Shown: positions 3,911-23,143 of the stretch, in pieces
Layout: each line of letters starts with the position of its first letter
How positions within the stretch are numbered: the first letter of the stretch is position 1
From: a virus
Taxonomy: Duplodnaviria; Heunggongvirae; Uroviricota; Caudoviricetes
Length of the DNA: 23,430 nucleotides
Reading direction: 5' to 3' (one strand)
IMG/VR virus record: IMGVR_UViG_2675903330_000005
Location: 1-23,430 of that record
Notes under the pieces: generated by a model
What the model was told of the DNA's origin: nothing
Seen by the model: the letters and a program-made list of their open reading frames with translations, nothing else
The model's database searches: none
Translations under genes and position numbers: made by a program

Positions 3911-4764
3911 GCACCATCCTGAAATGGGCGGGTAATAAAACCGCCATTATGTCCGAACTGAAAAAATACCTTCCTGCTGGCCCGCGACTGGTTGAACCTT
4001 TCGCGGGTTCTTGTGCTGTGATGATGGCGACGGATTACCCCAGCTATCTGGTTGCGGATATTAATCCTGATTTAATCAACCTCTATAAAAAGATTGCCGC
4101 TGATTGCGAAGCGTTTATATCTCGTGCCAAAGTTTTATTTGAGGAAGCAAACAGTGAGCTGGCTTATTACAACATAAGACAGGAGTTTAATTACTCAACT
4201 GAAATTACTGATTTCATGAAGGCGATATATTTCCTGTATCTCAATCGTCACGGTTACCGTGGTTTATGTCGCTATAACAAGAGCGGGTATTTCAACATTC
4301 CCTACGGTAATTATAAAAATCCGTATTTCCCTGAAAAAGAAATTCGCGCATTTGCAGAGAAAGCCCAGCGGGCAACGTTTATCTGCGCGAGCTTTGATGA
4401 AACGCTGGCGATGCTGCAGGTGGGGGATGTGGTGTATTGCGATCCGCCGTATGACGGTACGTTTTCCGGCTATCACACTGATGGTTTCACTGAAGATGAC
4501 CAGTATCACCTGGCATCCATTCTTGAACATCGGTCATCAGAAGGACATCCGGTCATTGTTTCTAACAATGACACATCCCTGATTCGTTCGCTGTATCGCA
4601 ATTTTACTCACCACTATATCAAGGCAAAACGCAGCATCGGCGTGTCAGCTGGCGAGGGTAAATCTGCAACAGAAATCATTGCTGTTTCCGGGCCGAGCTG
4701 CTGGTTGGGATTTGATCCTTCGCGTGGCGTGGATAGTTCTGCCGTGTACGGAGTGTGTGTATGA
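3907..4764 (+). CDS. dam: DNA adenine methyltransferase (Dam-like, GATC N6-adenine MTase)
   Basis: N-terminal LKWAGNK and FAGSCAV (AdoMet-binding) motifs plus catalytic DPPY motif (..[11 protein letters not shown]..); start ATGA-overlaps the upstream stop. Confidence 0.9.
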
Positions 4765-7175
4765 GTCATGACGATATGAACAATTGCAGCGGCTTTAACG
4801 AGGCCGCCGCAGCATTTTCATGGAACGGCTCGAAAAAGGCCATTAACCCTTATCTGGACCCGGCGGAAGTTGCGCCGGAGTCTGCACTTTCAAACCTGAT
4901 CACTCTGTACGCTGCCGATAACGAGCAGGAACAACTGCGCCGCGAGGCACTGAGTGAGCAGGTCTGGGAGCGTTATTTCTTTAATGAATCCCGTGATCCT
5001 GTCCAGCGCGAAATGGAGCAGGATAAGCTCATTAGCCGGGCAAAGCTGGCGCATGAGCAGCAGCGTTTTAATCCGGACATGGTCATTCTGGCGGACGTAA
5101 ACGCCCAGCCTTCCCATATCAGCAAGCCGCTGATGCAACGTATTGAATACTTCAGCAGCCTGGGCAGGCCAAAGGCTTATTCCCGCTATTTGCGTGAGAC
5201 GATTAAGCCATGTCTGGAGCGACTGGATTGTGTACGTGACAGTCAGCTATCTGTTTCTTTCCGTTTTATGGCAAGCCATCAAGGGCTGGAGGGTCTGCTG
5301 ATCCTGCCTGAAATGAGCCAGGATCAGGTGAAACGCCTGTCCACCCTGGTAGCAGCGCATATGAGCATGTGTCTTGAGGACGCTTGTGGTGATTTGTATG
5401 CCACCGATGACGTTAAGCCAGAAGAAATCCGCAAGACATGGGAAAAGGTGGCAGCGGAAACCCTGCGTCTGGATGTTATCCCGCCTGCGTTTGAGAAACT
5501 TCGTCGGAAAAGAAACCGCCGCAAACCAGTGCCCTATGAACTCATCCCGGGTTCGCTGGCGCGTATGTTGTGTGCCGACTGGTGGTATCGGAAATTATGG
5601 AAGATGCGTTGCGAATGGCGGGAAGAGCAGTTGCGTGCTGTCTGCCTGGTCAGCAAAAAAGCATCCCCCTATGTCAGCTATGAAGCCGTGATGCATAAAC
5701 GTGAGCAGCGCCGTAAGTCGCTGGAGTTTTTTCGTTCTCATGAACTGGTGAACGAAGACGGCGACACGCTGGATATGGAAGATGTGGTAAACGCCAGCAG
5801 CAGCAACCCGGCGCATCGCCGCAATGAGATGATGGCCTGTGTTAAAGGTCTGGAGCTTATCGCGGAAATGCGCAGTGACTGTGCCGTTTTCTACACTATC
5901 ACCTGTCCGTCGCGTTTCCATTCCACGCTCAATAACGGCAGACCAAACCCGACCTGGACAAACGCGACGGTAAGACAAAGTAGCGATTATCTGGTCGGCA
6001 TGTTTGCTGCATTTCGTAAGGCTATGCATAAAGCCGAGTTGCGCTGGTATGGCGTGCGGGTAGCTGAGCCGCATCATGACGGTACTGTGCACTGGCATCT
6101 CATGTGTTTCATGCGTAAAAAAGACCGCCGCGCCATCACTGCATTACTGCGTAAGTTTGCCATCCGTGAAGACCGCGAGGAGCTGGGCAATAACACGGGA
6201 CCACGCTTTAAGTCTGAGCTGATAAACCCGCGCAAAGGTACGCCAACAAGCTATATCGCGAAATACATCAGTAAGAACATTGACGGGCGTGGTCTGGCTG
6301 GGGAGATCAGCAAGGAAACGGGTAAATCCCTGCGTGATAACGCTGAATACGTTAATGCCTGGGCGTCTCTGCATCGTGTTCAGCAATTCCGCTTCTTTGG
6401 CATTCCGGGGCGTCAGGCTTACCGTGAACTGCGATTGCTGGCTGGTCAGGCGGCAAGGCAACAGGGTGACAAAAAAGCAGGTGCGCCGGTACTGGATAAC
6501 CCGCGCCTTGATGCAATCCTGGCTGCTGCTGATGCTGGTTGTTTTGCCACCTACATCATGAAGCAGGGCGGCGTACTGGTTCCCCGCAAATATCACCTCA
6601 TCAGAACTGCTTATGAAATCAACGAAGAACCGACCGCATATGGCGATCACGGTATTCGTATTTATGGCATCTGGTCACCCATTGCAGAGGGCAAGATCTG
6701 CACTCATGCGGTGAAGTGGAAAATGGTTCGTAAGGCCGTTGACGTTCAGGAGGCGGCAGCCGACCAGGGCGCTTGCGCCCCTTGGACTCGTGGCAATAAC
6801 TGTCCCCTTGCTGAAAATTTGAACCAACAGGAGAAAGATAAATCAACAGATGGGGATCCCAGAACTGACATTACCTGTATGGATGACAAGGAGTTGCACG
6901 ATTACCTGCACAGTATGAGCAAAAAAGAGCGCCAGGAACTGGCAGCAAGATTACGCCTGATGAAACCGAAACGGCGTAAAGACTACAAACAGCGAATTAC
7001 AGAGTATCAGCGTCAGCAGCTCGTCTATGAACTGAAGTCAAGAGGATTTGATGGCAGCGAGAAAGAGGTCGATTTGCTCCTTCGCGGTGGCAGTATTCCG
7101 TCAGGAGCAGGCCTGCGTATCTTCTATCGGAACCAGCGTTTGCAGGAAGATGATAAGTGGCGGAACCTGTATTAA
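4761..7175 (+). CDS. A: Replication initiation endonuclease gpA (HUH rolling-circle initiator)
   Basis: About 804 aa; HUH motif ..[10 protein letters not shown].. and tyrosine pair ..[10 protein letters not shown].. characteristic of P2 gpA; start overlaps dam stop (ATGA). Confidence 0.9.
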
Positions 7176-7266
7176 TCACGTGGGTTAACAATTCGTGCTC
7201 TTAATAATACCAGGCATATCAGGCTGATGAACGTAAAAAACGTTTTACATCAGTAAGATTATTATA

Positions 7267-7286
7267 TACTGTAAATATAAACAGTG
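7267..7286. promoter_or_regulatory. Candidate LexA (SOS) box: TACTGTAAATATAAACAGTG (CTGT-N8-ACAG)
   Basis: Match to the LexA consensus TACTGT(AT)4ACAGTA core, overlapping a -10-like TATAAA/TATACT region about 45 bp upstream of a small ORF with a consensus SD. Confidence 0.55.
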
Positions 7287-7327
7287 GTTGTGCATACAGT
7301 GTTGCTTGTGGTGTCATAGGAGGAAAG

Positions 7328-7498
7328 ATGCAGGACTATTTTTTGGAGTCTTTGAAGCTCCAGCGCATTGATTTTTTTCTTAAGCTTGTGGCGGCTAGTG
7401 AGTGTAGTGATGAAGAGAAGGGGCTGGCTCTGCAGTGGGTTTCTGAGTTGACTGATGAGCTGATGGCGAGAATTCGCGCTCATGAATACAACCACTAG
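7328..7498 (+). CDS. Small 56-aa ORF downstream of the LexA box; candidate SOS-inducible Tum-like antirepressor or small regulator
   Basis: ATG preceded by a perfect AGGAGG SD at optimal spacing; not in the supplied ORF track (under 60 aa); translates to MQDYFLESLKLQRIDFFLKLVAASECSDEEKGLALQWVSELTDELMARIRAHEYNH. Confidence 0.35.
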   Translation: MQDYFLESLKLQRIDFFLKLVAASECSDEEKGLALQWVSELTDELMARIRAHEYNH

Positions 7499-7671
7499 AT
7501 GGATCTTCCCAGTAGTTTTTCGAAACTGAAAACAACCGAGTGAAAGTTACGACACTTGAGATTTTCACTTGGGTTATAATCAGAATACTTGTTTTCGTCC
7601 ACAAATGTACATGCCATGCATTAATGTGGTGATAGCTTTCAATTTTTACTAAATGGTTTCAATTGCTTCTT

Positions 7672-8217
7672 ATGAATCATGTAATGTTAGATATAGAAAC
7701 ATTGGATGTTGAAAAAACAGCTTATATCCTTTCAGTTGGTGCGGCTTTTTTCGTGCCGGAGACTGGCGAGATTGGTCCGGGTTTCTATCAAGTTATTTCG
7801 CTTGATCATGAACAAGCAGGCAGAACCATTGCCCCCTCTACTGTAAAGTGGTGGATGAATCAAAGTACTGAAGCTAAAAACGAAAATTTTGATGGCACTA
7901 AGGACCTTTTAGAGGTTCTGAATGAATTTGTGGCATTTATTCTTCATAATCGTACTGGCCGAGTAAAAGTGTGGGGAAACGGGAAAGAGTTTGACTGCAC
8001 GATCATGCATCATGCCCTGTTACAGGCGGGTCTGGATTGCCCATGGTCATTCAGAGATACTCTTGACGTTAGAACCATCTTAGCACTTGGTGAAAGCAAA
8101 GGAATTTTTTCTCATGCTGATAAAAATTTCACTGGCATTAGGCACACAGCATTCGATGATGTTTTATTTCAGATCGCACAGGTTTCTCACATCTATATGA
8201 ATTTAAATAAAAAATAA
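7672..8217 (+). CDS. DEDDh-type 3'-5' exonuclease (DnaQ-like fold), about 181 aa
   Basis: Exo I motif VMLDIETLD, Exo II-like ..VWGNGKEFDCTIM.., Exo III motif ..HTAFDDVLFQI..; first gene of the AT-rich cargo cassette; start codon uncertain (7663 TTG / 7672 ATG / 7684 ATG). Confidence 0.7.
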   Translation: MNHVMLDIETLDVEKTAYILSVGAAFFVPETGEIGPGFYQVISLDHEQAGRTIAPSTVKWWMNQSTEAKNENFDGTKDLLEVLNEFVAFILHNRTGRVKVWGNGKEFDCTIMHHALLQAGLDCPWSFRDTLDVRTILALGESKGIFSHADKNFTGIRHTAFDDVLFQIAQVSHIYMNLNKK

Positions 8218-8232
8218 ATATAGGACTTAGCT

Positions 8233-9144
8233 ATGGATTGCTTAGATGTAACCTATTGGACTGAGCTAGATGTTTTCGCACAGTATCCTGTTGGTGCTCG
8301 CTCTAAGGCATTGGTTATTTCCCCTGATGTTGCCCCCCATGGTATCAAAGCATCGTGGCCGTATCTTTTTAAGAGAAGCATTAAAAAATACCCAGATCAA
8401 TTTTGGTGTGAGATCGTTGCCTACAGGATTGGATTGCAGCTTGGTTTTAATGTCCCCAAAGCAGTTCCTTCGTTAAAGACTAATGATTTGGGGCATACGT
8501 TTTGCGGGGCCCTCATTGAGTGGTTTCATCATAAAGATTATGAGAAATTTGCTCCCGCTGGTGATTACTTTGTTCGAAGAGATCCAAATTTTGATCGTGA
8601 GAAAGGAGCTAAGCATTCCATTGAAGGGCTGAGGATTATCGCGAAAGCTCTTAAAGTTGACTATGTTGAGTGGTTGGAGAATATGGCTCTCTTTGACGCA
8701 GTAATAGGTAATACAGATAGACATCAAGAAAACTGGGGGTTTATCTTCTCACCTTTAACCAGCGAGTGTCAGCTTGCACCATTTTTCGATAATGGTACGA
8801 GCTTATGCTACGAACGTTTTCCGGAACATGTTGCTGATTGGACCGATCATAGACTCAGGGAGCATGTTAGCCGGGGAAAGCATCATTTGCGTAAGACTCT
8901 GGGCAAAGATGAGTATCAGAGATTAGGTCATTTAGAGTTAATCAAAGAACTTTGTGATAAAAAAGAAGAATTAAAACAGCGGGTAGCTGAAAGACTGGCT
9001 CGTTTGAACCATGACTTTTGGGACTCAACTTTTGCGGAGTTGACGGAAATAAACTGCCCTGTTCCGCTGACTAGAGAACGTGCTGCATGGATTGTTCGTG
9101 TAACAAACATGCGTATTGAACTGATTAAAGGTGTTACTTCATGA
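8233..9144 (+). CDS. HipA-family serine/threonine kinase, short HipT-like form lacking the HipA N-terminal subdomain
   Basis: P-loop-like ..VGARSKALVIS.. (cf. HipA VAGAQEKTAL), ..WCEIVAYRIGLQLGFNVP.. (cf. HipA YCLLLAKELGLNVP), catalytic loop ..VIGNTDRHQENWGF.. (cf. HipA IGATDGHAKNFS) and Mg-binding ..LAPFFDNGTS.. (cf. HipA LTPFYDIIS); 303 aa. Confidence 0.8.
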   Translation: MDCLDVTYWTELDVFAQYPVGARSKALVISPDVAPHGIKASWPYLFKRSIKKYPDQFWCEIVAYRIGLQLGFNVPKAVPSLKTNDLGHTFCGALIEWFHHKDYEKFAPAGDYFVRRDPNFDREKGAKHSIEGLRIIAKALKVDYVEWLENMALFDAVIGNTDRHQENWGFIFSPLTSECQLAPFFDNGTSLCYERFPEHVADWTDHRLREHVSRGKHHLRKTLGKDEYQRLGHLELIKELCDKKEELKQRVAERLARLNHDFWDSTFAELTEINCPVPLTRERAAWIVRVTNMRIELIKGVTS

Positions 9145-9845
9145 CTATCTTAATAGAAAAAATTCCCATGCCAAGTAGGCTCTTACTGACATGGCAACCG
9201 ACCGACGGCGGCTCTCGCTATGTCGTTGGTGAACTTCTTCAAGATGAGTCTGAAGGCTACGAGTTTAATTATCTTACGGATAGCAAAGATTTTGCTAAAG
9301 CTGTGGATAAAGGCTTTCACGGTTTTCCTGCTTTTGACATAAAAGTTACGACTCATCGCAAAGACGTTATGCAAACCTTTTCAAGAAGGTTACCCTCTAG
9401 GAAAAGAGAAGATTTTGCCGATTACTTGCTGACGTTTCGTCTTCCTGCTGATTTTAGAGAGAATGACTTCGTTTTGCTCGCTTGTACTGGCGGAAAAGTG
9501 GCTAGTGATGGTTTTTATTTTGTCCCAGACTTGTCTTCTATTCGGCCACCTTTTGATTATGTCATGGAGGTCGCCGGAACGAGACACATGATTAAGGAAG
9601 GGCGTCTAGCTCTTGACGAGATATCAATTGGTGATGAAGTCATATTGCGCAATGAAGATACCAATACTGTTGATCCGCTGGCCATATTAGTAACGAAAAA
9701 CGACAATCATCTAGGATATGTCAACAAGGCATTGTGCGCCGCATTACGAGATCTTGGTAAAAACCATGATATCAGTGGAGTGGTCGTACGTAAAAATGGC
9801 TCTTCGGATAGGCCTTTGATTTATGCAAAAGTATCTGTTAGATGA
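9141..9845 (+). CDS. Two-domain protein: N-terminal HipA-N-subdomain-like (HipS-like) region fused to a C-terminal HIRAN-like domain
   Basis: N-term ..LLLTWQPTDGGSRYVVGELLQDESEGYEFNY.. resembles the HipA N-terminus (..LVTWMNNQRVGELTKLANGAHTFKY..); C-term ..DEVILRNEDTNTVDPLAILVTKNDNHLGYVNKALCAAL.. fits the HIRAN pattern; start ATGA-overlaps the kinase stop. Confidence 0.55.
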   Translation: MTILIEKIPMPSRLLLTWQPTDGGSRYVVGELLQDESEGYEFNYLTDSKDFAKAVDKGFHGFPAFDIKVTTHRKDVMQTFSRRLPSRKREDFADYLLTFRLPADFRENDFVLLACTGGKVASDGFYFVPDLSSIRPPFDYVMEVAGTRHMIKEGRLALDEISIGDEVILRNEDTNTVDPLAILVTKNDNHLGYVNKALCAALRDLGKNHDISGVVVRKNGSSDRPLIYAKVSVR

Positions 9846-10013
9846 TGCATGTTTATTCATGCTTGCTAGTGATACTGCATTTATAGAGTCTGTCAACTAT
9901 GGAGATTTTTTCGTCTCATGCAACTACATTAAATTACCATTAAGTGGGTTGACGTTGCGGGGGAAGCATTACACGTCAGTATTGGTGCGTCTGAAGTGTC
10001 ATGCCGAAAAGGT

Positions 10014-10121
10014 ATGAAAAAGCCGCTTGGTAACATAACTATTCGCAATGATGTTGTAGGAAGCGAACTGGAAATGATAGCAATGGATGCTGTTGATGTA
10101 GTGTATGTCTATGCTGCATGA
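10014..10121 (+). CDS. Possible 35-aa micro-ORF (MKKPLGNITIRNDVVGSELEMIAMDAVDVVYVYAA) at the 3' end of the cassette
   Basis: ATG with an AAAGG SD-like sequence upstream; ends about 35 bp before the intrinsic terminator; weak support. Confidence 0.2.
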   Translation: MKKPLGNITIRNDVVGSELEMIAMDAVDVVYVYAA

Positions 10122-10155
10122 GTTTGCATGAACGTTTGAGGCTCGTTTTTGTTAA

Positions 10156-10181
10156 GGCCCGCCAGAACTGGCGGGCTTTTG
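10156..10181 (+). terminator. Rho-independent terminator closing the cargo cassette
   Basis: GC-rich inverted repeat GCCCGCC-agaact-GGCGGGC followed by TTTTG. Confidence 0.6.
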
Positions 10182-10225
10182 CTCATGTCATGCAGGTGCA
10201 TGAAAACCACTACATAAAGCGGGCA

Positions 10226-10244
10226 GGCGTGGCGGGGATACGAG
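10226..10244. other. Candidate cos site (19-nt cohesive end): GGCGTGGCGGGGATACGAG followed by CGCGCGC
   Basis: Matches the P2 cohesive end GGCGAGGCGGGGAAAGCAC at 14 of 19 positions and the 186 sequence as I recall it at about 15 of 19; lies between the post-gpA cargo region and gene Q, where cos sits in P2. Confidence 0.6.
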
Positions 10245-10305
10245 CGCGCGCAAACATGTTTACTTGCAATTAATGTAGATATATTCTGAAATTGATAACT
10301 TACAC

Positions 10306-10515
10306 ATGAAAGGAGACGTGAGAGTGGCAAAATATACACCGGGCCAGAAAGTAAAACATGCAACAGGACATGGTCCAATCATGGTAATTGATCACTACCA
10401 ATCGGCTACAATGGCAGTTTGTACGTGGTTTATTGGTGCTAAGAACCAGCGCGGAGTTTTTCATGAAGATACTCTAGTTTTATTTGTTCCAAAAGCTGAG
10501 AGTGATGATGAATGA
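10306..10515 (+). CDS. YodC/DUF2158-like small protein; start may be GTG at 10324 (63 aa)
   Basis: ..KYTPGQKVKHATGHGPIMVI....GVFHEDTLV.. resembles E. coli YodC (..GGPRMIV....EAFHETELV..); AGGAG SD 8 nt upstream of GTG 10324. Confidence 0.55.
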   Translation: MKGDVRVAKYTPGQKVKHATGHGPIMVIDHYQSATMAVCTWFIGAKNQRGVFHEDTLVLFVPKAESDDE

Positions 10516-10774
10516 TTCTCTGATAAAAATAGTTGACTGGATGGTTAATACCACTCGTTCTAATGGTGTGTTGTATCAGTCCGAGGTTGTTGAATTTCTA
10601 ATCAATGACTTTGGGGACGAGTTCATCAAAACTAATGAGAATGGTAATTACGCTATAAGCAGTACTGTGCTAGCAAATTTTAGAAAGGCTAGCAAAGACG
10701 ATATAGTTTGGGATCGTGAACAGTTAGCTTGGCGTTTACGCAATGAAAGCGATTTACCCGGACGGATGCAGTAG
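10508..10774 (+). CDS. Hypothetical 89-aa protein, overlapping the upstream small gene's stop
   Basis: ORF whose ATG (10505/10508) overlaps the stop of the YodC-like gene; no recognisable motif. Confidence 0.4.
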   Translation: MNDSLIKIVDWMVNTTRSNGVLYQSEVVEFLINDFGDEFIKTNENGNYAISSTVLANFRKASKDDIVWDREQLAWRLRNESDLPGRMQ

Positions 10775-10790
10775 AGATAATACAGAGAAT

Positions 10791-10831
10791 AGTGAACAAG
10801 CTGATAATTTCAACTTGTTCACTTCTTTTTT
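10791..10831. terminator. Hairpin terminator between the convergent small-gene pair and gene Q (possibly bidirectional)
   Basis: Perfect 10-bp inverted repeat AGTGAACAAG...CTTGTTCACT with 13-nt loop, followed by TCTTTTTT on the + strand. Confidence 0.5.
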
Positions 10832-11873
10832 ATGACTGATTATTTTCTAAGCCATAATATTCAAATTTGACTACCTCTTCATCTAACCATTCATTAATTT
10901 CGGCAATGCGTTTTTGTAAAGGCATCAGTTCATTCCGAACAAATACCCGGCTGGCTTTCTCCACATCCCCAAACCCCCCTACATTATTAGGCATAATCCC
11001 CATCATCTGCGGCGGCACTCGGTGTGCTGCCATCATGTCGTCCCGGCTCACGTTCTTGATATTCAGAAACTCATCCTTCGCCGCGACTTCTGACAACGGG
11101 ATGATCTGAAGCCCGTCCTTTTTGCCGTTAGGCGAGTACATAAACAGATTGCGGAAGTTACCTGGTCCTTTGGCGCTTTTCATCGCATTGCGGAGGTTGT
11201 TCACATCCTCCTGGTTTTGCGCGGCATCGGTCATGTACATGATGAAGCCTGCATGACTGCCGTTAATGTAATACTTTCGACGGAACAGCGTGGCGGACTC
11301 GTTGAGCAGGGCAGACGGAATGGCAGAAAGATAACCGGGCAGGCCGTAGATCTCCTGATTAATATCCGGTTCCATTAGATGAAAAATGCTGCCTTTCGTG
11401 AACTGATACGGCTGGGTTGTCATACCGTATTGCACAAACCAGTAGGTATCCAGGTCTAACCCGCGTCGGGTGTATTTTGCCAGCGCAGGCTCAAGGGCGA
11501 TAACTTCACCGAATCGGTTCGTGCGTTTCTCCAGGTAGGCGTTACCAAATACCAGATAGTCCTGCACAAAACGCGAAAAAGCCTGCTGGCTGAGCAGCGG
11601 GTGAGGGATATAGGTGCTGGTCAGAATGTTGCACTTTACTGCAATCGGTGAGCTGTGGTGAACGGCGGCGCGGAATGTTCGCGCCAGTCCGTCAAAACTT
11701 ACGGGTGGCTCATACCAGCGATCCGTCTGTACGCATTCCACATAGTCCAGCAGTTCGCGGCGGTCAAGTACTGGAATGGGATCACCGAAGCTGAATGCTT
11801 CGGCTGAAGTTTGGCTTTTATGCTTGAGCTGATTCGTCGCCGCAGCGCGGTTTTTCTTACTCTTTCCCATCAA
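10830..11873 (-). CDS. Q: Capsid portal protein gpQ
   Basis: 347 aa, leftward, ATGA-coupled to P; position and size match P2 Q. Confidence 0.9.
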   Translation of the reverse strand: MMGKSKKNRAAATNQLKHKSQTSAEAFSFGDPIPVLDRRELLDYVECVQTDRWYEPPVSFDGLARTFRAAVHHSSPIAVKCNILTSTYIPHPLLSQQAFSRFVQDYLVFGNAYLEKRTNRFGEVIALEPALAKYTRRGLDLDTYWFVQYGMTTQPYQFTKGSIFHLMEPDINQEIYGLPGYLSAIPSALLNESATLFRRKYYINGSHAGFIMYMTDAAQNQEDVNNLRNAMKSAKGPGNFRNLFMYSPNGKKDGLQIIPLSEVAAKDEFLNIKNVSRDDMMAAHRVPPQMMGIMPNNVGGFGDVEKASRVFVRNELMPLQKRIAEINEWLDEEVVKFEYYGLENNQS

Positions 11874-16436: not shown

Positions 16437-16901
16437 ATGAAGTTTGTTGCGCCAGAACAGGCACCGGAACAGGCGGAAATCATCAGGAATACGCCGTTCT
16501 GGCCTGATGTGGACCTGTCGGAGTTTCGCAGTGTCATGCGCACTGACGGCACGGTGACGCAGCCGCGTTTAAAGCAGGTTGCGCTGTCGGCAATTTCGGA
16601 GGTCAACGCAGAGCTGTATGAGTTTCGCAGACGTCAGCAGATGCTGGGGTATGCGTCGCTGGCTGAGATTCCGGCGGAACATCTGGACGGGAAAAGTGAG
16701 CGCATTCAGCACTATTTCAACGCGGTTTACTGCTGGGCACGCGCCATGCTCAACGAACGATACCAGGACTATGACGCCACGGCATCCGGTGTGAAGCGAG
16801 GCGAGGAACTGGCGGAATCCAGCGGTGATTTGTGGCGTGACGCCCGCTGGGCCATCAGCCGGGTGCAGGATGCGCCGCACTGCACAGTGGAGCTTATCTG
16901 A
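16437..16901 (+). CDS. L: Head completion/stabilisation protein gpL (start at internal ATG with CAGGAG SD)
   Basis: Position after M; stop overlaps X start; the track ORF's N-terminal extension lacks an SD. Confidence 0.75.
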   Translation: MKFVAPEQAPEQAEIIRNTPFWPDVDLSEFRSVMRTDGTVTQPRLKQVALSAISEVNAELYEFRRRQQMLGYASLAEIPAEHLDGKSERIQHYFNAVYCWARAMLNERYQDYDATASGVKRGEELAESSGDLWRDARWAISRVQDAPHCTVELI

Positions 16902-17104
16902 TGAAAGTGCGTGCGCATCAGTATGACACGGTGGACGCGCTTTGCTGGCGTCATTACGGGCGCACGCAGGGTGTCACGGAGCAGGTACTGAAGGCAAATC
17001 CGGGGCTTGCCGAATATGGCCCCTTTTTACCTCACGGGCTGCAGGTGGAGCTGCCGGACATTCCGACCACCACCACCGTGCAGACCGTCCAGCTATGGGA
17101 CTGA
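16901..17104 (+). CDS. X: Tail protein gpX (LysM-like)
   Basis: 67 aa, same length as P2 X; ..VDALCWRHYG.. motif. Confidence 0.85.
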   Translation: MKVRAHQYDTVDALCWRHYGRTQGVTEQVLKANPGLAEYGPFLPHGLQVELPDIPTTTTVQTVQLWD

Positions 17105-17107
17105 ATT

Positions 17108-17323
17108 ATGACGCTTGAGCGAATCAGCGCCTTTATCACGTACTGCATCGCCGTTGTGCTGGCCTGGCTGGGCGATTTGTCCATCAAGGATGCCTCAACG
17201 CTGGGCGGCCTGATGATTGGTGTGCTGATGCTGGCTATCAACTGGTACTACAAACACAAAGCCTACCAGCTTCTGCGCGACGGGCAGATCTCGCGGGAGG
17301 ACTATGAATCCATCAATCGTTAA
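17108..17323 (+). CDS. Y: Holin (P2 gpY position), 71 aa with two hydrophobic segments
   Basis: Membrane-spanning segments ..ISAFITYCIAVVLAWLG.. and ..LGGLMIGVLMLAINWYY.. and a charged C-terminus, directly upstream of the lysozyme. Confidence 0.65.
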   Translation: MTLERISAFITYCIAVVLAWLGDLSIKDASTLGGLMIGVLMLAINWYYKHKAYQLLRDGQISREDYESINR

Positions 17324-17930
17324 ACGCTGCCTTGTCGGGGCCGTGCTGGCTATTGCTGCCACGCTGCCGGGTTTTCAGCAGCTTCACACCTCCGTGGAGG
17401 GGCTGAAACTGATTGCCGATTACGAAGGCTGTCGTCTGCAGCCGTATCAGTGCAGCGCGGGTGTCTGGACCGACGGCATTGGTAATACATCTGGCGTCAT
17501 TCCAGGCAAAACCATTACGGAACGACAGGCAGCGGAAGGGCTGATCTCCAACGTGCTACGTGTGGAGCGGGCGCTGGAAAGATGTGTGAAGCAACAGCCG
17601 CCACAAAAGGTGTATGACTCGGTGGTGTCGTTTGCCTTCAACGTGGGAACGGGCAATGCCTGCAGTTCCACGCTGGTGAAATTACTCAATCAGCGGCGCT
17701 GGGCGGATGCGTGCCGACAGTTGCCGCGCTGGGTTTATGTAAAAGGTGTGTTTAATCAGGGGCTGGATAGGTGCTCTGCTCAGTCCGATAGGTCTTGTGG
17801 TTACTGCACTGGCGGGCGTGGCGCTGGTTGTCTGGAAATACTGGCAACCCATCACCGCATTTCTCGGTGGCGTGGTGGAAGGATTCAAAGCGGCGGCAGG
17901 TCCCATCAGTGCAGCGTTCGAACCGCTTAA
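17304..17930 (+). pseudogene. K: Endolysin gpK (lysozyme family), 3'-truncated at a deletion junction near 17760; ORF continues out of register into tape-measure DNA
   Basis: N-terminal roughly 150 aa look like a phage lysozyme (..EGLKLIADYEGCRLQPYQCSAGVWTDGIGNT..); the distal roughly 55 aa are low-complexity read-through overlapping the T fragment in another frame. Confidence 0.7.
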
Positions 17931-18687
17931 GCCCGTGTTCCAGTGGATTGGCGACAAAGTGCAGGCGCTGTGGGGCTGGTTTACTGATCTGCTGACGCCC
18001 GTTAAGTCGACCTCTGCCGAACTGCAGAGCGCAGCGGCAATGGGGCGGCGATTCGGGGAGGCACTGGCGGAAGGGCTGAATATGGTCATGCATCCGCTGG
18101 ACTCCCTGAAATCCGGCGTTTCCTGGTTGCTGGAGAAGCTCGGCATTGTCAGTAAAGAGGCCGCAAAGGCAAAACTGCCGGAAAGCGTGACGCGTCAGCA
18201 ACCTGCGACGGTGAATGCAGACGGTAAAGTGATGATGCCATCGGGTGGTTTTCCATCATGGGGATATGGCTTTGCGGGGATGTATGACAGCGGCGGGTAT
18301 ATCCCGCGCGGGCAGTTTGGCATCGTCGGTGAAAACGGGCCGGAAATTGTTAACGGCCCGGCAAATGTGACCAGCCGGAGAAATACAGCTGCACTGGCTG
18401 CCGTTGTTGCCGGAATGATGGGCGTTGCTGCCGCGCCAGCAGAGCTTCCACCGTTGCACCCTTTGGCACTTCCCGCGAAAGGTGGAGAAGCAATTGTGAG
18501 TCGCGCAGCCACTGTGCCGCTCGTTCAACGGATTGAGGCACCGACGCAGATCATCATTCAGACGCAGCCAGGACAAAGTGCGCAGGATATTGCGCGGGAG
18601 GTGGCACGCCAGCTTGATGAACGTGAACGCAGGCTGAAGGCAAAAGCCAGGAGTAACTACAGCGATCAGGGGGGATACGACGCATGA
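17746..18687 (+). pseudogene. T: Tape-measure protein gpT, C-terminal fragment only (about 310 of about 800 aa); 5' part removed by the deletion
   Basis: Hydrophobic TMP-like segment GWIGALLSPIGLVVTALAGVALVVW and C-terminal ..GGYIPRGQFGIVGENGPEIVNGP..; stop overlaps the U start; no credible start or SD. Confidence 0.8.
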
Positions 18688-19169
18688 TGATGGTGCTGGG
18701 ATTGTACGTGTTTATGCTGCGCACCGTTCCGTATCAGGAACTGCAGTATCAACGCAGCTGGCGACATGCGGCAAACAGTCGGGTAAACCGACGTCCGTCC
18801 ACGCAGTTTCTGGGACCGGAAAACGACATGCTGACGCTTTCCGGTGTTCTTATGCCGGAAATAACAGGCGGCAGGCTGTCGTTGCTGGCACTGGAGCAGA
18901 TGGCAGAACAGGGGAAAGCATGGCCCCTGATTGAAGGCAGCGGCACGATTTACGGCATGTATGTGATTGAGGGACTGAATCAGACTAAAACGGAGTTTTT
19001 CCGCGATGGTATGCCGCGCCGGATTGAGTTCACCCTGTCGCTCAAACGGGTGGATGAATCCCTGTCCGATATGTTCGGTGATCTCAGTGCGCAGCTGAAT
19101 AATTTGCAGGATACGACAACGTCTGCCTTAAGCGATATCAGTAAAACGGTGGGAGGGCTGCTGTCGTGA
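18684..19169 (+). CDS. U: Tail protein gpU
   Basis: 161 aa (P2 U is about 159 aa), between T and D. Confidence 0.85.
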   Translation: MMMVLGLYVFMLRTVPYQELQYQRSWRHAANSRVNRRPSTQFLGPENDMLTLSGVLMPEITGGRLSLLALEQMAEQGKAWPLIEGSGTIYGMYVIEGLNQTKTEFFRDGMPRRIEFTLSLKRVDESLSDMFGDLSAQLNNLQDTTTSALSDISKTVGGLLS

Positions 19170-20266
19170 ATTTCAGCTCTGAACTGCTTAACAAAGGCAA
19201 CAAAACTCCGGCATTCAGCATCAGTATTGAGGGTAAGGATATCACCACTGTGCTGGATAACCGCCTGATGAGTCTGACGCTGACGGACAATCGGGGCTTT
19301 GAAGCGGACCAGCTTGATCTGGAGCTGGATGACGCCGACGGAAAAATCGTGCTGCCGCGCCGTGGTGCGGTCATTACGCTGGCGTTGGGCTGGAAGGGGC
19401 AGTCGCTTTTCCCGAAAGGAGCATTCACGGTGGACGAGATTGAACACACTGGCGCACCGGACCGCCTGACTATCCGGGCGCGAAGTGCTGATTTTCGTGA
19501 AACCCTGAATACCCGCCGTGAAAAATCGTGGCACAAGACCACCGTTGGGGAAGTGGTGAAGGAAATAGCTGCGCGGCACAAACTGAAGATGGCATTGGGT
19601 GAAGACCTGTCGGATAAACCTGTGGAGCATATAGACCAGACCAATGAGAGTGACGGCAGTTTTCTGATGCGGCTGGCGCGCCAGTACGGTGCTATTGCGT
19701 CGGTGAAAAATGGCAATCTGTTATTCATCCGGCAGGGACAGGGTAAAAGCGCCAGCGGTAAACCACTACCGGTTATCACTATCACACGTAAGGACGGCGA
19801 CAGTCACCGCTTTACCCTGGCAGATCGCGGAGCCTACACGGGCGTAATTGCCAGCTGGTTGCATACCCGCGAACCCGCGAAGAAAGAAAGCACCACGGTG
19901 AAGCGTAAGCGCAGGACTAAGAAGCAGAAGAAAGAGCCGGAAGCGAAGCAGGGCGATTACCTGGTGGGTACAGATGAAAACGTGCTGGTACTTAATCGCA
20001 CCTATGCCAACCGGAGCAACGCCGAACGGGCGGCGAAAATGCAGTGGGAACGCCTGCAACGTGGCGTTGCGTCATTCTCGCTACAACTGGCAGAAGGTCG
20101 GGCGGATCTCTACACGGAAATGCCAGTGAAAGTCAGAGGCTTTAAACAGCCGATAGATGATGCGGAATGGACTATTACCACCCTGACGCATACTGTCAAT
20201 CCGGATAACGGTTTTACGACCAGTCTGGAGCTTGAAGTGAAGATTAATGATTTCGAAATGGAATGA
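19166..20266 (+). CDS. D: Tail protein gpD (late control gene D)
   Basis: 366 aa; GTG start with GGGAGGG SD; follows U and precedes ogr as in P2. Confidence 0.85.
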   Translation: MNFSSELLNKGNKTPAFSISIEGKDITTVLDNRLMSLTLTDNRGFEADQLDLELDDADGKIVLPRRGAVITLALGWKGQSLFPKGAFTVDEIEHTGAPDRLTIRARSADFRETLNTRREKSWHKTTVGEVVKEIAARHKLKMALGEDLSDKPVEHIDQTNESDGSFLMRLARQYGAIASVKNGNLLFIRQGQGKSASGKPLPVITITRKDGDSHRFTLADRGAYTGVIASWLHTREPAKKESTTVKRKRRTKKQKKEPEAKQGDYLVGTDENVLVLNRTYANRSNAERAAKMQWERLQRGVASFSLQLAEGRADLYTEMPVKVRGFKQPIDDAEWTITTLTHTVNPDNGFTTSLELEVKINDFEME

Positions 20267-20810: not shown

Positions 20811-22496
20811 TTATCCTAATCCTGGCCATACCATGACGATGATTGTCCCTGCCAGCGTCAGCAGGACGTTGGCGATTGCATAGGTGCCCGCATAGCCCAG
20901 CGCCGGGATGTTACTGCGAGCTGTATCACTGATGATCTCCATTGCCGGCGCGCAGGTACGTGCGCCCATCATTGCGCCGAACAACAGCGCGCGGTTCATT
21001 CGCAATACATAAGCACCGAACAAGAAACAGATAACCACGGGCACCAGACTGACAATCAATCCGGCAATCAACATCTGACCGCCAATCGCGCCCAGGCCGT
21101 TATTAATACCGCTACCGGCGCTCAGACCAACGCCTGCCATAAACACCATCAAGCCGAACTCTTTCACCATGCTTAATGCACCCTGCGGAATGTAACCGAA
21201 GGTCGGGTGGTTAGCACGCATAAAGCCCAGCATAATTCCGGCGAATAACAACCCGGCAGCGTTCCCCATGCCGAAACTGAATGTGCTGAACTGGAAGGTG
21301 ATCATCCCGATCATCAGCCCAATAACAAAGAAGGCGCAGAATGCCAGCAGGTCAGTGACCTGGCTGTGAATCGAGATAAAGCCGATGCGATCGGCGATGG
21401 TTTTTACGCGGCGGGCATCGCCGCTGACTTGTAAAACGTCACCTTTGTTAAGCACGACGTTGTCATCTATCGGCATCTCAATCTGGCTACGAATGACGCG
21501 GTTAAGGAAGCAACCGTGATCGGTCAACTTCAGTTGTGCGAGACGTTTACCTACAGCGTTATGGTTTTTAACGACCACTTCTTCAGTGACGATACGCATG
21601 TCGAGAAGGTCACGATCGAAAACTTCTTTACCGTTACGGAAGCTGGGATCGAGTCGGGCATGGGCGTCGGGATAGCCTACCAACGCTATTTCATCGCCCA
21701 TTTGTAGCACGGCATCACCGTCTGGATTTGCCAGAATCCCGTTACGTCGAATACGTTCAATGTAGCAGCCGGTTTGTCGATAAATACCCAGTTCACGCAG
21801 ATTTTTGCCGTCGGTCCAGGCCACCAGTTCCGGGCCGACGCGATAGGCGCGGATCACCGGTAAATAAACCTTACGGTTGGCATCAGTGTCCAGGCCACGT
21901 TCGCGGGCGATTTGCTGGGCGCTGGTCTGTAAGTCCTGATGCTGCAATTTCGGCAAGTAACGCGCACCAACAATCAAACTCACCAGACCGATTAAATAGG
22001 TTAAGGCATACCCGAGGCTCAGATTATCCAGTGCCAGTGAGAGCTGCCTGCTTTCCATGCCGGAATGACGCAGTGTATCGCCAGCACCGACCAGAACCGG
22101 TGTCGACGTCATAGAGCCTGCTAACATACCGGCCGTCAGGCCAATATCCCAGCCAAACAGCTTACCTAACCCTAAGGCGATCACCAGCGCACTGCCAACC
22201 ATCACCAGTGCTAACATTAGGTAATTTTTCCCATCGCGAAAAAAAATGGAAAAAAAGTTCGGTCCGGCTTCGACCCCGACGCAGAAAATAAACAGCATAA
22301 AGCCAAGATTAAGCGCATCGGTGTTAATGCTGAAATGTTGTTGGCCTAATAACAGCGATACGACTAAAACGCCAATGGAATTACCCAGTTGGATCGAACC
22401 AAGTCGTAACTTTCCGAGACATAGCCCAAGCGCGAGGACCACAAATAATAACAGAATGTAATTCCCATTTAACAATTCGGCGACGTTTATATTCAC
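20811..22496 (-). CDS. ybjL: Putative transport protein YbjL (AAE-family transporter with central TrkA-C/RCK_C-like domains)
   Basis: 561-aa polytopic membrane protein with the duplicated-transporter architecture of E. coli YbjL; conserved neighbourhood with ybjM and grxA. Confidence 0.9.
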
Positions 22497-22765
22497 GGAG
22501 GCTAACTTCTTGTTTACTAGTAAGCTGTTGAAAGAAATGGTAATTTACGATAATGTTTTTTACCAGAATTCAGGGCGCAGATTCATTCAGCGCACCTAAA
22601 CGATAGTAAAGCAACAATATATTTTACTAGTGTAATCACATTAGGTATCAACGGCTATATGAATTGCGTTGGCCTATATTAGCATGGAATGCGAAGCGGC
22701 TTTATCTTACTGAACGCCACACTGGCGAAAAATGTGTTCGATAGACGCAGTGTCAGGAGGAACGA

Positions 22766-23143
22766 GTGAAACATAAACAACGTTGGGCGGGGGCAATCTG
22801 CTGTTTTGTCCTCTTCATTGTGGTGTGCCTTTTTCTGGCGACGCACATGAAAGGCGCTTTTCGGGCTGCCGGGCATCCTGAAATCGGCTTGCTATTTTTC
22901 ATTCTTCCTGGAGCAGTCGCCAGCTTCTTTTCACAGCGTAGAGAAGTCCTGAAACCTCTGTTTGGCGCAATGCTGGCGGCACCCTGTTCGATGCTCATTA
23001 TGCGGCTGTTTTTTTCACCGACGCGCTCATTCTGGCAAGAGCTGGCATGGTTACTAAGCGCGGTGTTCTGGTGTGCGCTGGGGGCACTGTGTTTCTTATT
23101 TATCAGTAGTTTGTTTAAACCACAGCACAGAAAAAATCAGTAA
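22766..23143 (+). CDS. ybjM: Inner membrane protein YbjM
   Basis: 125-aa hydrophobic protein between ybjL and grxA, as in E. coli K-12. Confidence 0.85.
   Translation: MKHKQRWAGAICCFVLFIVVCLFLATHMKGAFRAAGHPEIGLLFFILPGAVASFFSQRREVLKPLFGAMLAAPCSMLIMRLFFSPTRSFWQELAWLLSAVFWCALGALCFLFISSLFKPQHRKNQ

Follow-up and report, generated by a model that had tools for sequence, protein, structure and literature searches.

In the HipBST toxin-antitoxin system, known from E. coli O127 and Legionella (PDB 7ab3 and 7vkb), HipA is split into a kinase core, HipT, and a separate protein with the fold of N-subdomain-1, HipS. HipS neutralises HipT by contacting its active site; Trp65 is wedged beside the Gly-rich loop, which is held in an inactive outward state (PMC10627512). 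A related arrangement, hipIN, consists of a gene for a short kinase, HipI, followed by that of HipN, which joins a HipS-like domain to a HIRAN domain; in HipL the same parts form a monocistronic fusion (Gerdes, Baerentsen & Brodersen, mBio 2021, PMC8262856). HIRAN domains bind DNA 3’ ends, according to the literature cited in that study, and its authors proposed that HIRAN recognises the DNA ends of invading phage or replication intermediates, upon which the kinase becomes active and infection is aborted. Their set comprised 14 hipIN and 14 hipL genes, and mentioned neither prophages nor an exonuclease. Here we analyse a three-gene cassette in a 23,430-nucleotide stretch of viral DNA (IMG/VR record IMGVR_UViG_2675903330_000005, positions 1 to 23,430; hereafter the window). 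From their architecture and from PADLOC models, two of the three genes are assigned to the hipIN module, which is thus already published and catalogued. The third encodes a DEDDh 3’-5’ exonuclease.

Three further precedents bear on this locus. In HipAD/DS-6, a HipA-family kinase provides kinase-dependent phage defence that requires its catalytic residue (PMC13092281). About one third of the NrnC-like DEDD deoxydinucleotidases (diDNases) of Actinomycetes and Clostridia directly adjoin genes for HipA-domain and HIRAN-domain proteins (Mortensen, NAR 2025, PMC11706625). Finally, the old/tin position of phage P2 is a hotspot that serves as a reservoir of anti-phage systems (Rousset 2022, PMC9122126). 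Neither HipA nor HIRAN is mentioned in the P2/P4 hotspot papers.

The kinase and HipN proteins of the cassette

The window is a tail-deleted, defective P2/186-like prophage of E. coli that carries the hipIN-type module in its post-gpA cargo slot. Three plus-strand genes lie in a row and encode proteins of 181, 303 and 234 aa, the last at 9141-9845. As an earlier sequence-only reading of this DNA had described, the first two are separated by 15 bp and the last two overlap by an ATGA (9141-9144), in which the kinase stop codon meets the HipN start codon. The same reading extended the cassette to position 10181; the 336 bp between the last stop codon and that position are non-coding.

The 303-aa protein passes the Pfam HipA_C model (E 3.6e-10, 40.3 bits against a cut-off of 30.5), residues 21-212 being aligned to profile positions 5-174. 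Because residue 21 aligns to position 5 of the profile, the Gly-rich loop is placed about 20 residues from the N-terminus. Residues G21, R23 and K25 of this loop, K47, the catalytic D162-R-H..N167 motif and the Mg-binding D186-N-G motif are invariant in 41 homologues. With these residues invariant and the loop close to the N-terminus, the protein is a catalytically complete kinase core of the HipA superfamily that lacks N-subdomain-1, as the sequence-only reading had suggested. Among solved structures, CtkA of H. pylori, an effector-type kinase, comes closest, ahead of HipA and HipT.

The 234-aa protein, translationally coupled to the kinase, joins an N-terminal domain of the HipS fold to a C-terminal HIRAN domain. 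The HIRAN domain is recognised by Pfam (E 2.3e-7, residues 140-218) and keeps the N..D..A and G-Y motifs, which are aligned to the DNA-binding motifs of HLTF. A search with the HipN profile against all PDB sequences matched HIRAN alone; no HipS or HipA N-domain was returned for the N-terminal half. The HipS fold of this half was established by structure comparison, where the sequence profile search had failed. Thus, the fusion that had been read from the letters of the sequence is borne out, its two halves by different means. A search of NCBIfam with all three cassette proteins gave nothing useful.

The two adjacent genes match the candidate system PDC-M03 of PADLOC-DB v2, both over essentially their full length. 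The kinase matches PDC-M03A (PDLC04340) with E 4.1e-36, residues 1-298 covering profile positions 1-272 of 280, and HipN matches PDC-M03B (PDLC04352) with E 9.5e-37, residues 11-220 covering positions 5-213 of 250. No HTH gene was found within the cargo slot. The pair is thus bicistronic as in hipIN, with the kinase first and no HTH antitoxin gene, an order shared by about 90 loci. The sequence-only reading did not recognise the combination as a described system; this novelty does not hold, the pair being hipIN (PMC8262856) and having a PADLOC entry, PDC-M03. Its hypothesis, that the HipS-like-HIRAN protein restrains the kinase until phage DNA ends are sensed, re-derives a published proposal for a catalogued family. 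Accordingly, the genes should be labelled as a hipIN/PDC-M03 candidate and an Rv2179c-like exonuclease, not as a new system. In RefSeq, the E. coli genes are labelled ‘3'-5' exonuclease’, ‘HipA domain-containing protein’ and ‘HIRAN domain-containing protein’.

With hipIN, the window pair shares a short kinase with its Gly-rich loop near the N-terminus, a following gene for a HipS-like and HIRAN protein, and the lack of a hipB gene. What sets it apart is that a DEDDh exonuclease precedes it and that it is located in the P2 post-gpA hotspot. HipL contains the same three domains in the same order, and a sister lineage in the same phage slot is fused, whereas the window has two separate, translationally coupled genes and no single polypeptide. 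With HipBST, the pair shares the split of HipA into a kinase core and a separate protein with the N-subdomain-1 fold. However, the gene order is reversed, with the kinase first, no HipB HTH protein is encoded, and the HipS part has an added HIRAN domain, so that the tricistronic hipB-hipS-hipT arrangement is not that of the window; this split and its reversal had been correctly noted in the sequence-only reading. The window kinase is also closer to CtkA than to HipT, the target of which is TrpS. HipAD/DS-6 is the nearest validated relative and likewise combines a HipA-family kinase with a partner other than HipB. That partner, DUF3037/DUF1829, is unrelated and lacks both HipS and HIRAN domains. 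P2 old/tin occupies the same position between gpA and the packaging genes and provides prophage-borne exclusion functions, old being an exonuclease. No sequence relationship between old/tin and the window cassette was detected, and neither old nor tin contains a kinase.

Distribution and proposed mode of action of the pair

Loci were collected with an alignment of HipN homologues, 72 from species-representative genomes and 23 from viral contigs. Wherever these approximately 95 loci offered enough sequence, the kinase gene is in nearly every case directly upstream of that of HipN, and the two commonly overlap by 4 bp. The HipN-like proteins with E<=1e-30 fall into 240 clusters at 50% identity, and the order of kinase then HipN is found across many bacterial phyla, often in mobile or defence contexts. 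hipIN/PDC-M03 is thus widespread, including in many phages. For instance, in an Aliivibrio P2-like prophage the pair separates the integrase and CI genes; another copy flanks a Vibrio filamentous phage, and a further one adjoins the integrase gene of C. difficile phage phiCDKH02.

Of the genes 5’ of the kinase in 33 loci, 7 encode type I restriction-modification (R-M) S subunits and 3-4 encode integrases; the others are unrelated. In several beta- and gammaproteobacterial genomes (eight loci), an HsdS gene is followed by the hipIN pair with gaps of 3-10 bp, as if within the R-M operon. A universal conserved third gene was ruled out, the neighbours of the pair elsewhere being heterogeneous (HsdS, integrases, housekeeping genes). 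Because of this heterogeneity, we consider the pair to be a self-contained mobile two-gene module. The neighbourhood conservation that the sequence-only reading proposed as a check holds for the kinase/HipN pair in nearly all loci, whereas the trio is found only in enterobacterial P2-like phages.

A single open reading frame (ORF) of 519-549 aa encodes kinase, HipS and HIRAN domains in Escherichia phage 899, Yersinia phage GMG73 and Serratia-type loci. These enterobacterial fused proteins are HipL-like by domain architecture. A neighbour-joining tree places their kinase domain as the sister group of the kinases from split cassettes. That hipIN resides in the P2 post-gpA hotspot, and that both split and fused forms occupy this slot, is new here, if modest.

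We lean towards reading the pair as a toxin-antitoxin-like abortive-infection switch of the hipIN type, carried as prophage cargo, of which the exonuclease is not a general component. The HipS-like domain would dock on the kinase and keep its Gly-rich loop inactive, as in HipBST. HIRAN may bind free DNA 3’ ends, be they those of phage genomes, of replication intermediates or of products of DNA breakdown, and this engagement would release or reorient the HipS-like domain and so relieve the block. The freed kinase might then phosphorylate a translation factor that the cell cannot do without; analogy suggests an aminoacyl-tRNA synthetase. Growth of the infected cell would stop and the superinfecting phage would be aborted, protecting the lysogen population. 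An allosteric switch is favoured over antitoxin degradation because natural kinase-HipS-HIRAN fusions exist.

The same fusions bear on another explanation, in which the pair is a classical addiction module that stabilises the prophage or island by post-segregational killing, with neither phage defence nor DNA-end sensing. The architecture is that of a toxin-antitoxin system related to HipBA and HipBST, the pair resides on many mobile elements as well as in ordinary chromosomal sites, and it has been kept in a defective prophage, all of which an addiction module would explain. Differential antitoxin decay, however, cannot operate in a kinase-HipS-HIRAN fusion, and no HTH autoregulator accompanies the pair. 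This explanation also leaves the conserved HIRAN domain and its DNA-binding motifs unaccounted for, and the positions in the P2 defence hotspot and at type I R-M loci point to defence. We judge it quite unlikely.

The proximity to CtkA raises a further alternative. Instead of a self-toxin, the kinase could be an effector that serves the prophage by phosphorylating proteins of the host or of phage, for instance in the control of replication or induction; HIRAN would anchor the kinase at replication intermediates, with the exonuclease taking part in the same DNA transaction once gpA has nicked. Besides the effector-type nature of the closest solved structure, this idea draws on the location of the cassette directly after the gpA gene, which encodes a rolling-circle initiator and source of 3’-OH ends, and on the routine occurrence of the exonuclease family in phage replication modules. 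It is very improbable in our view, as the pair is common outside phages and far from replication genes, the cassette is dispensable cargo in P2-like phages (5 of 5426 E. coli genomes), and a HipS-type partner suggests inhibition of the kinase, not targeting.

Several points weigh against the abortive-infection switch itself. The toxicity, neutralisation, DNA binding and defence ascribed to the pair are all inferred, and no experimental paper on hipIN, HipN or PDC-M03 was found in the literature. The fold of HipI is closest to CtkA and not to the kinases of tRNA synthetases. Some hipIN loci are in plain chromosomal contexts, where a selfish toxin-antitoxin module fits as well as a defence system. 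The prophage in the window is defective, which bears on expression of the cassette, and a consensus scan assigned no promoter to the cassette. The locus nonetheless offers a convenient experimental entry to the family: it is native to E. coli, sits in the P2 hotspot, exists in natural split and fused versions and has an optional exonuclease. It opens the question of whether a HIRAN domain can sense DNA ends in immunity and thereby control a HipA-type kinase.

The exonuclease beside the pair

The 181-aa protein matches the Pfam family Rv2179c-like (PF16473, E 4.8e-50) and PHROG 255, ‘exonuclease’ (E 3e-60). D7, E9, D108, H158 and D163 are invariant in the family and fit the DEDDh catalytic pattern, so that the protein is predicted to be an intact DEDDh enzyme, in agreement with the sequence-only reading. 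A search of the PDB with a profile of its homologues returned 8kel, DnaQ and Cas2-DEDDh; a weak RNase_T match was seen in Pfam. The nearest solved relative is 8kel, a 227-aa ‘Exodeoxyribonuclease’ (E 1e-18). None of the NrnC/diDNase entries was matched by this profile. Membership of the published diDNase family was ruled out on these grounds, the protein being Rv2179c-like in Pfam. The RefSeq start lies 12 nt downstream of the ATG at 7672, which we favour because the N-terminus MNHVMLDIET is conserved among homologues.

This exonuclease adjoins the pair only in enterobacterial P2-like phages, where three types can be distinguished: the window type, a Yersinia ruckeri type and a fused Serratia/E. 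coli type. Identities to the window are 53% for the exonuclease, 52% for the kinase and 64% for HipN in the Yersinia ruckeri type (locus L081), and 41%, 42% and 47% in the fused type (locus L082), so that the three parts diverge roughly in step across these lineages. The association with an Rv2179c-like exonuclease, confined to these lineages yet persistent in them and reminiscent of that of diDNases in Gram-positive bacteria, is a third modest novelty of this work.

We find it probable that the functional system is the kinase/HipN pair alone and that the exonuclease is an ordinary phage DNA-metabolism gene carried along by slot recombination. The next-closest kinases (43% identity; Aliivibrio, Vibrio and Thiomicrorhabdus) have no adjoining exonuclease, and the exonuclease matched no PADLOC model. 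Moreover, 605 phage records contain the Rv2179c-like family. Stand-alone copies are seen in P2-like early operons, 5’ of Dam and gpA, in a lambdoid phage next to ERF/SSB, and near dadX on Serratia and Gibbsiella chromosomes. Against this, every member of the enterobacterial phage clade, in split and fused forms alike, has the exonuclease 5’ of the kinase with a gap of 9-19 bp despite divergence. Prophages of the same backbone without the pair also lack the exonuclease, the exonuclease and kinase genes decay together in E. coli EC101, and the cassette exonucleases come from two sub-lineages while the kinases come from one clade. A functional link is also suggested by the NrnC-like diDNases of Actinomycetes and Clostridia that adjoin HipA and HIRAN genes (PMC11706625).

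Neighbour-joining trees place the cassette kinases in one clade in 96 of 100 bootstraps, and the HipN proteins in 62 of 100. A single origin of the cassette exonucleases was rejected, their monophyly being recovered in 0 of 100 bootstraps. The split-type exonucleases group with the chromosomal Serratia/Gibbsiella genes (87/100), and the fused-type exonucleases with those of the P2-like early operons (80/100). The tree fits two recruitments or two escapes alike, two gains and two losses being equally parsimonious.

Membership of the exonuclease in one three-gene system, as the sequence-only reading had it, is unproven, since the gene is absent from nearly all other hipIN loci and its family occurs alone elsewhere. 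That it is a working part of the system at all seems to us doubtful, though far from negligible. If it is involved, the nuclease might remove 3’ ends or short DNA and thereby set the trigger threshold or reset the system. In its strong form, this idea makes the exonuclease a genuine third component: HipI-HipN would sense 3’ ends or short DNA, and the nuclease would set or reset the trigger by destroying the ligand. We hold this form to be unlikely. Were it true, the triad would have been assembled repeatedly, two Rv2179c-like sub-lineages having joined one kinase clade and NrnC-like diDNases having been used in Gram-positives, and it would amount to a three-part ‘nuclease-buffered kinase switch’, so far undescribed. 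The diDNase-HipA-HIRAN clusters resemble the window in that a DEDD 3’-5’ nuclease adjoins HipA and HIRAN genes on mobile or defence islands. They differ in the nuclease, which is NrnC-like there and Rv2179c-like DEDDh in the window, outside the NrnC-like diDNase subfamily, and in hosts and element types. Whether the recurrent pairing with a DEDD nuclease is functional is the second question that this locus opens.

Cargo slot, prophage backbone and coordinates

The locus has the features of a P2-like hotspot, with variable content between gene A and the portal gene and conserved flanks. Its flanks match 1281 of 5426 complete E. coli genomes. The full cassette is found in 5 of them, at 99.5-99.9% identity, and a decayed copy in a sixth. 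Other E. coli prophages of the same backbone (H7-H13) carry unrelated cargo between gpA/DinI and DUF6953/portal. The sequence-only reading placed the cassette between gpA and cos, where P2 carries old/tin. The post-gpA slot is indeed that of old/tin; a search for the P2 cos sequence in the window, with <=3 mismatches allowed, returned nothing, so that the cos side of this description follows from gene order alone. Coordinates of the cassette and of the slot borders are given in Table 1.

Table 1 Features of the cassette and of its cargo slot in the window.
Feature	Position	Strand	Remarks
DEDDh 3’-5’ exonuclease, Rv2179c-like	7672..8217	+	PF16473, PHROG 255; possibly accessory or hitchhiking rather than core
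Intergenic spacer, 15 bp	8218..8232	+	Shine-Dalgarno-like AGGA at 8222-8225, 7 nt 5’ of the kinase ATG
HipI-type small HipA-superfamily Ser/Thr kinase, putative toxin	8233..9144	+	Kinase core, without N-subdomain-1
HipN N-terminal HipS-like domain (about residues 1-135), putative kinase-neutralising module	9141..9545	+	
HipN C-terminal HIRAN domain (about residues 136-234) and stop codon, putative DNA 3’-end sensor	9546..9845	+	
AT-rich intergenic region 5’ of the cassette, possible promoter	7499..7671	+	Read from the sequence
gpA replication endonuclease, left border of the cargo slot	4755..7175	+	Phage_GPA, E 1.5e-127
Portal (Q) gene, right border of the cargo slot	10830..11873	-	Annotation of near-identical DS26-1 and same-backbone prophages
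Small backbone ORFs just inside the right border of the slot	10306-10515 and 10484-10774		Second is DUF6953, E 5.9e-24

The cassette lies in a GC trough of 0.39-0.43 over 7500-10500, against 51-54% in gpA and 52-59% in the portal and terminase genes. A perfect TATAAT is present at 7575-7580, within the AT-rich region, with no canonical -35 element. A scan for consensus promoters found none in that region and none above chance across the locus. The terminator-like matches of the scan fall within genes, and operon borders are not assignable from it. The 56-aa ORF at 7328-7498 had no family match; it is a hypothetical protein in RefSeq relatives, and same-backbone prophages have a DinI-like gene there. 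The two small ORFs inside the right border overlap and are kept in P2-like prophages regardless of the cargo; the first is a weak match to DUF2158 (PHROG 3261).

Related copies of the slot vary around the cassette. In E. coli DS26-1, the IS66-family element ISEc47 (7173-9598 of locus L001, corresponding to about position 10290 of the window) is inserted into the non-coding DNA between the HIRAN gene and the small backbone ORFs; this insertion is absent from the window. In E. coli EC101, a decaying copy at the start of the record is 93-95% identical to the cassette. Its exonuclease gene is frameshifted and has an internal stop, gpA is frameshifted, and the kinase gene breaks off at a junction where the annotation has a tail fibre gene. 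Between their HIRAN and portal genes, three loci contain an additional gene of 233-357 aa that has no annotation (3785-4858 in L107, about 2960-3661 in L079 and L080), with exonucleases 84-94% identical to that of the window. This gene is not in the window and may be a second cargo of the same slot.

The prophage genes are in the order integrase, CI repressor, CII/CP76, Dam and gpA, followed by portal and terminase, scaffold, capsid, small terminase and adaptor. Portal and terminase were identified from the annotation of near-identical or same-backbone E. coli prophages. The integrase gene, at 1-1095 on the minus strand, is cut by the left end of the window. In the region 16900-19170, a truncated endolysin ORF (17304-17930) runs into ORF 17746-18687, which corresponds only to the last third of a tape-measure protein (PHROG positions 575-907 of 907). 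This remnant is followed by gpU-like and gpD genes, and nearly all tail genes (sheath, tube, baseplate, fibres) are gone. Because of this loss, the element is only about 20 kb long. Directly after gpD, at 20811-23143, are host genes for an Asp-Al_Ex/TrkA_C transporter (YbjL-like, minus strand) and YbjM, which therefore mark the right end of the prophage.

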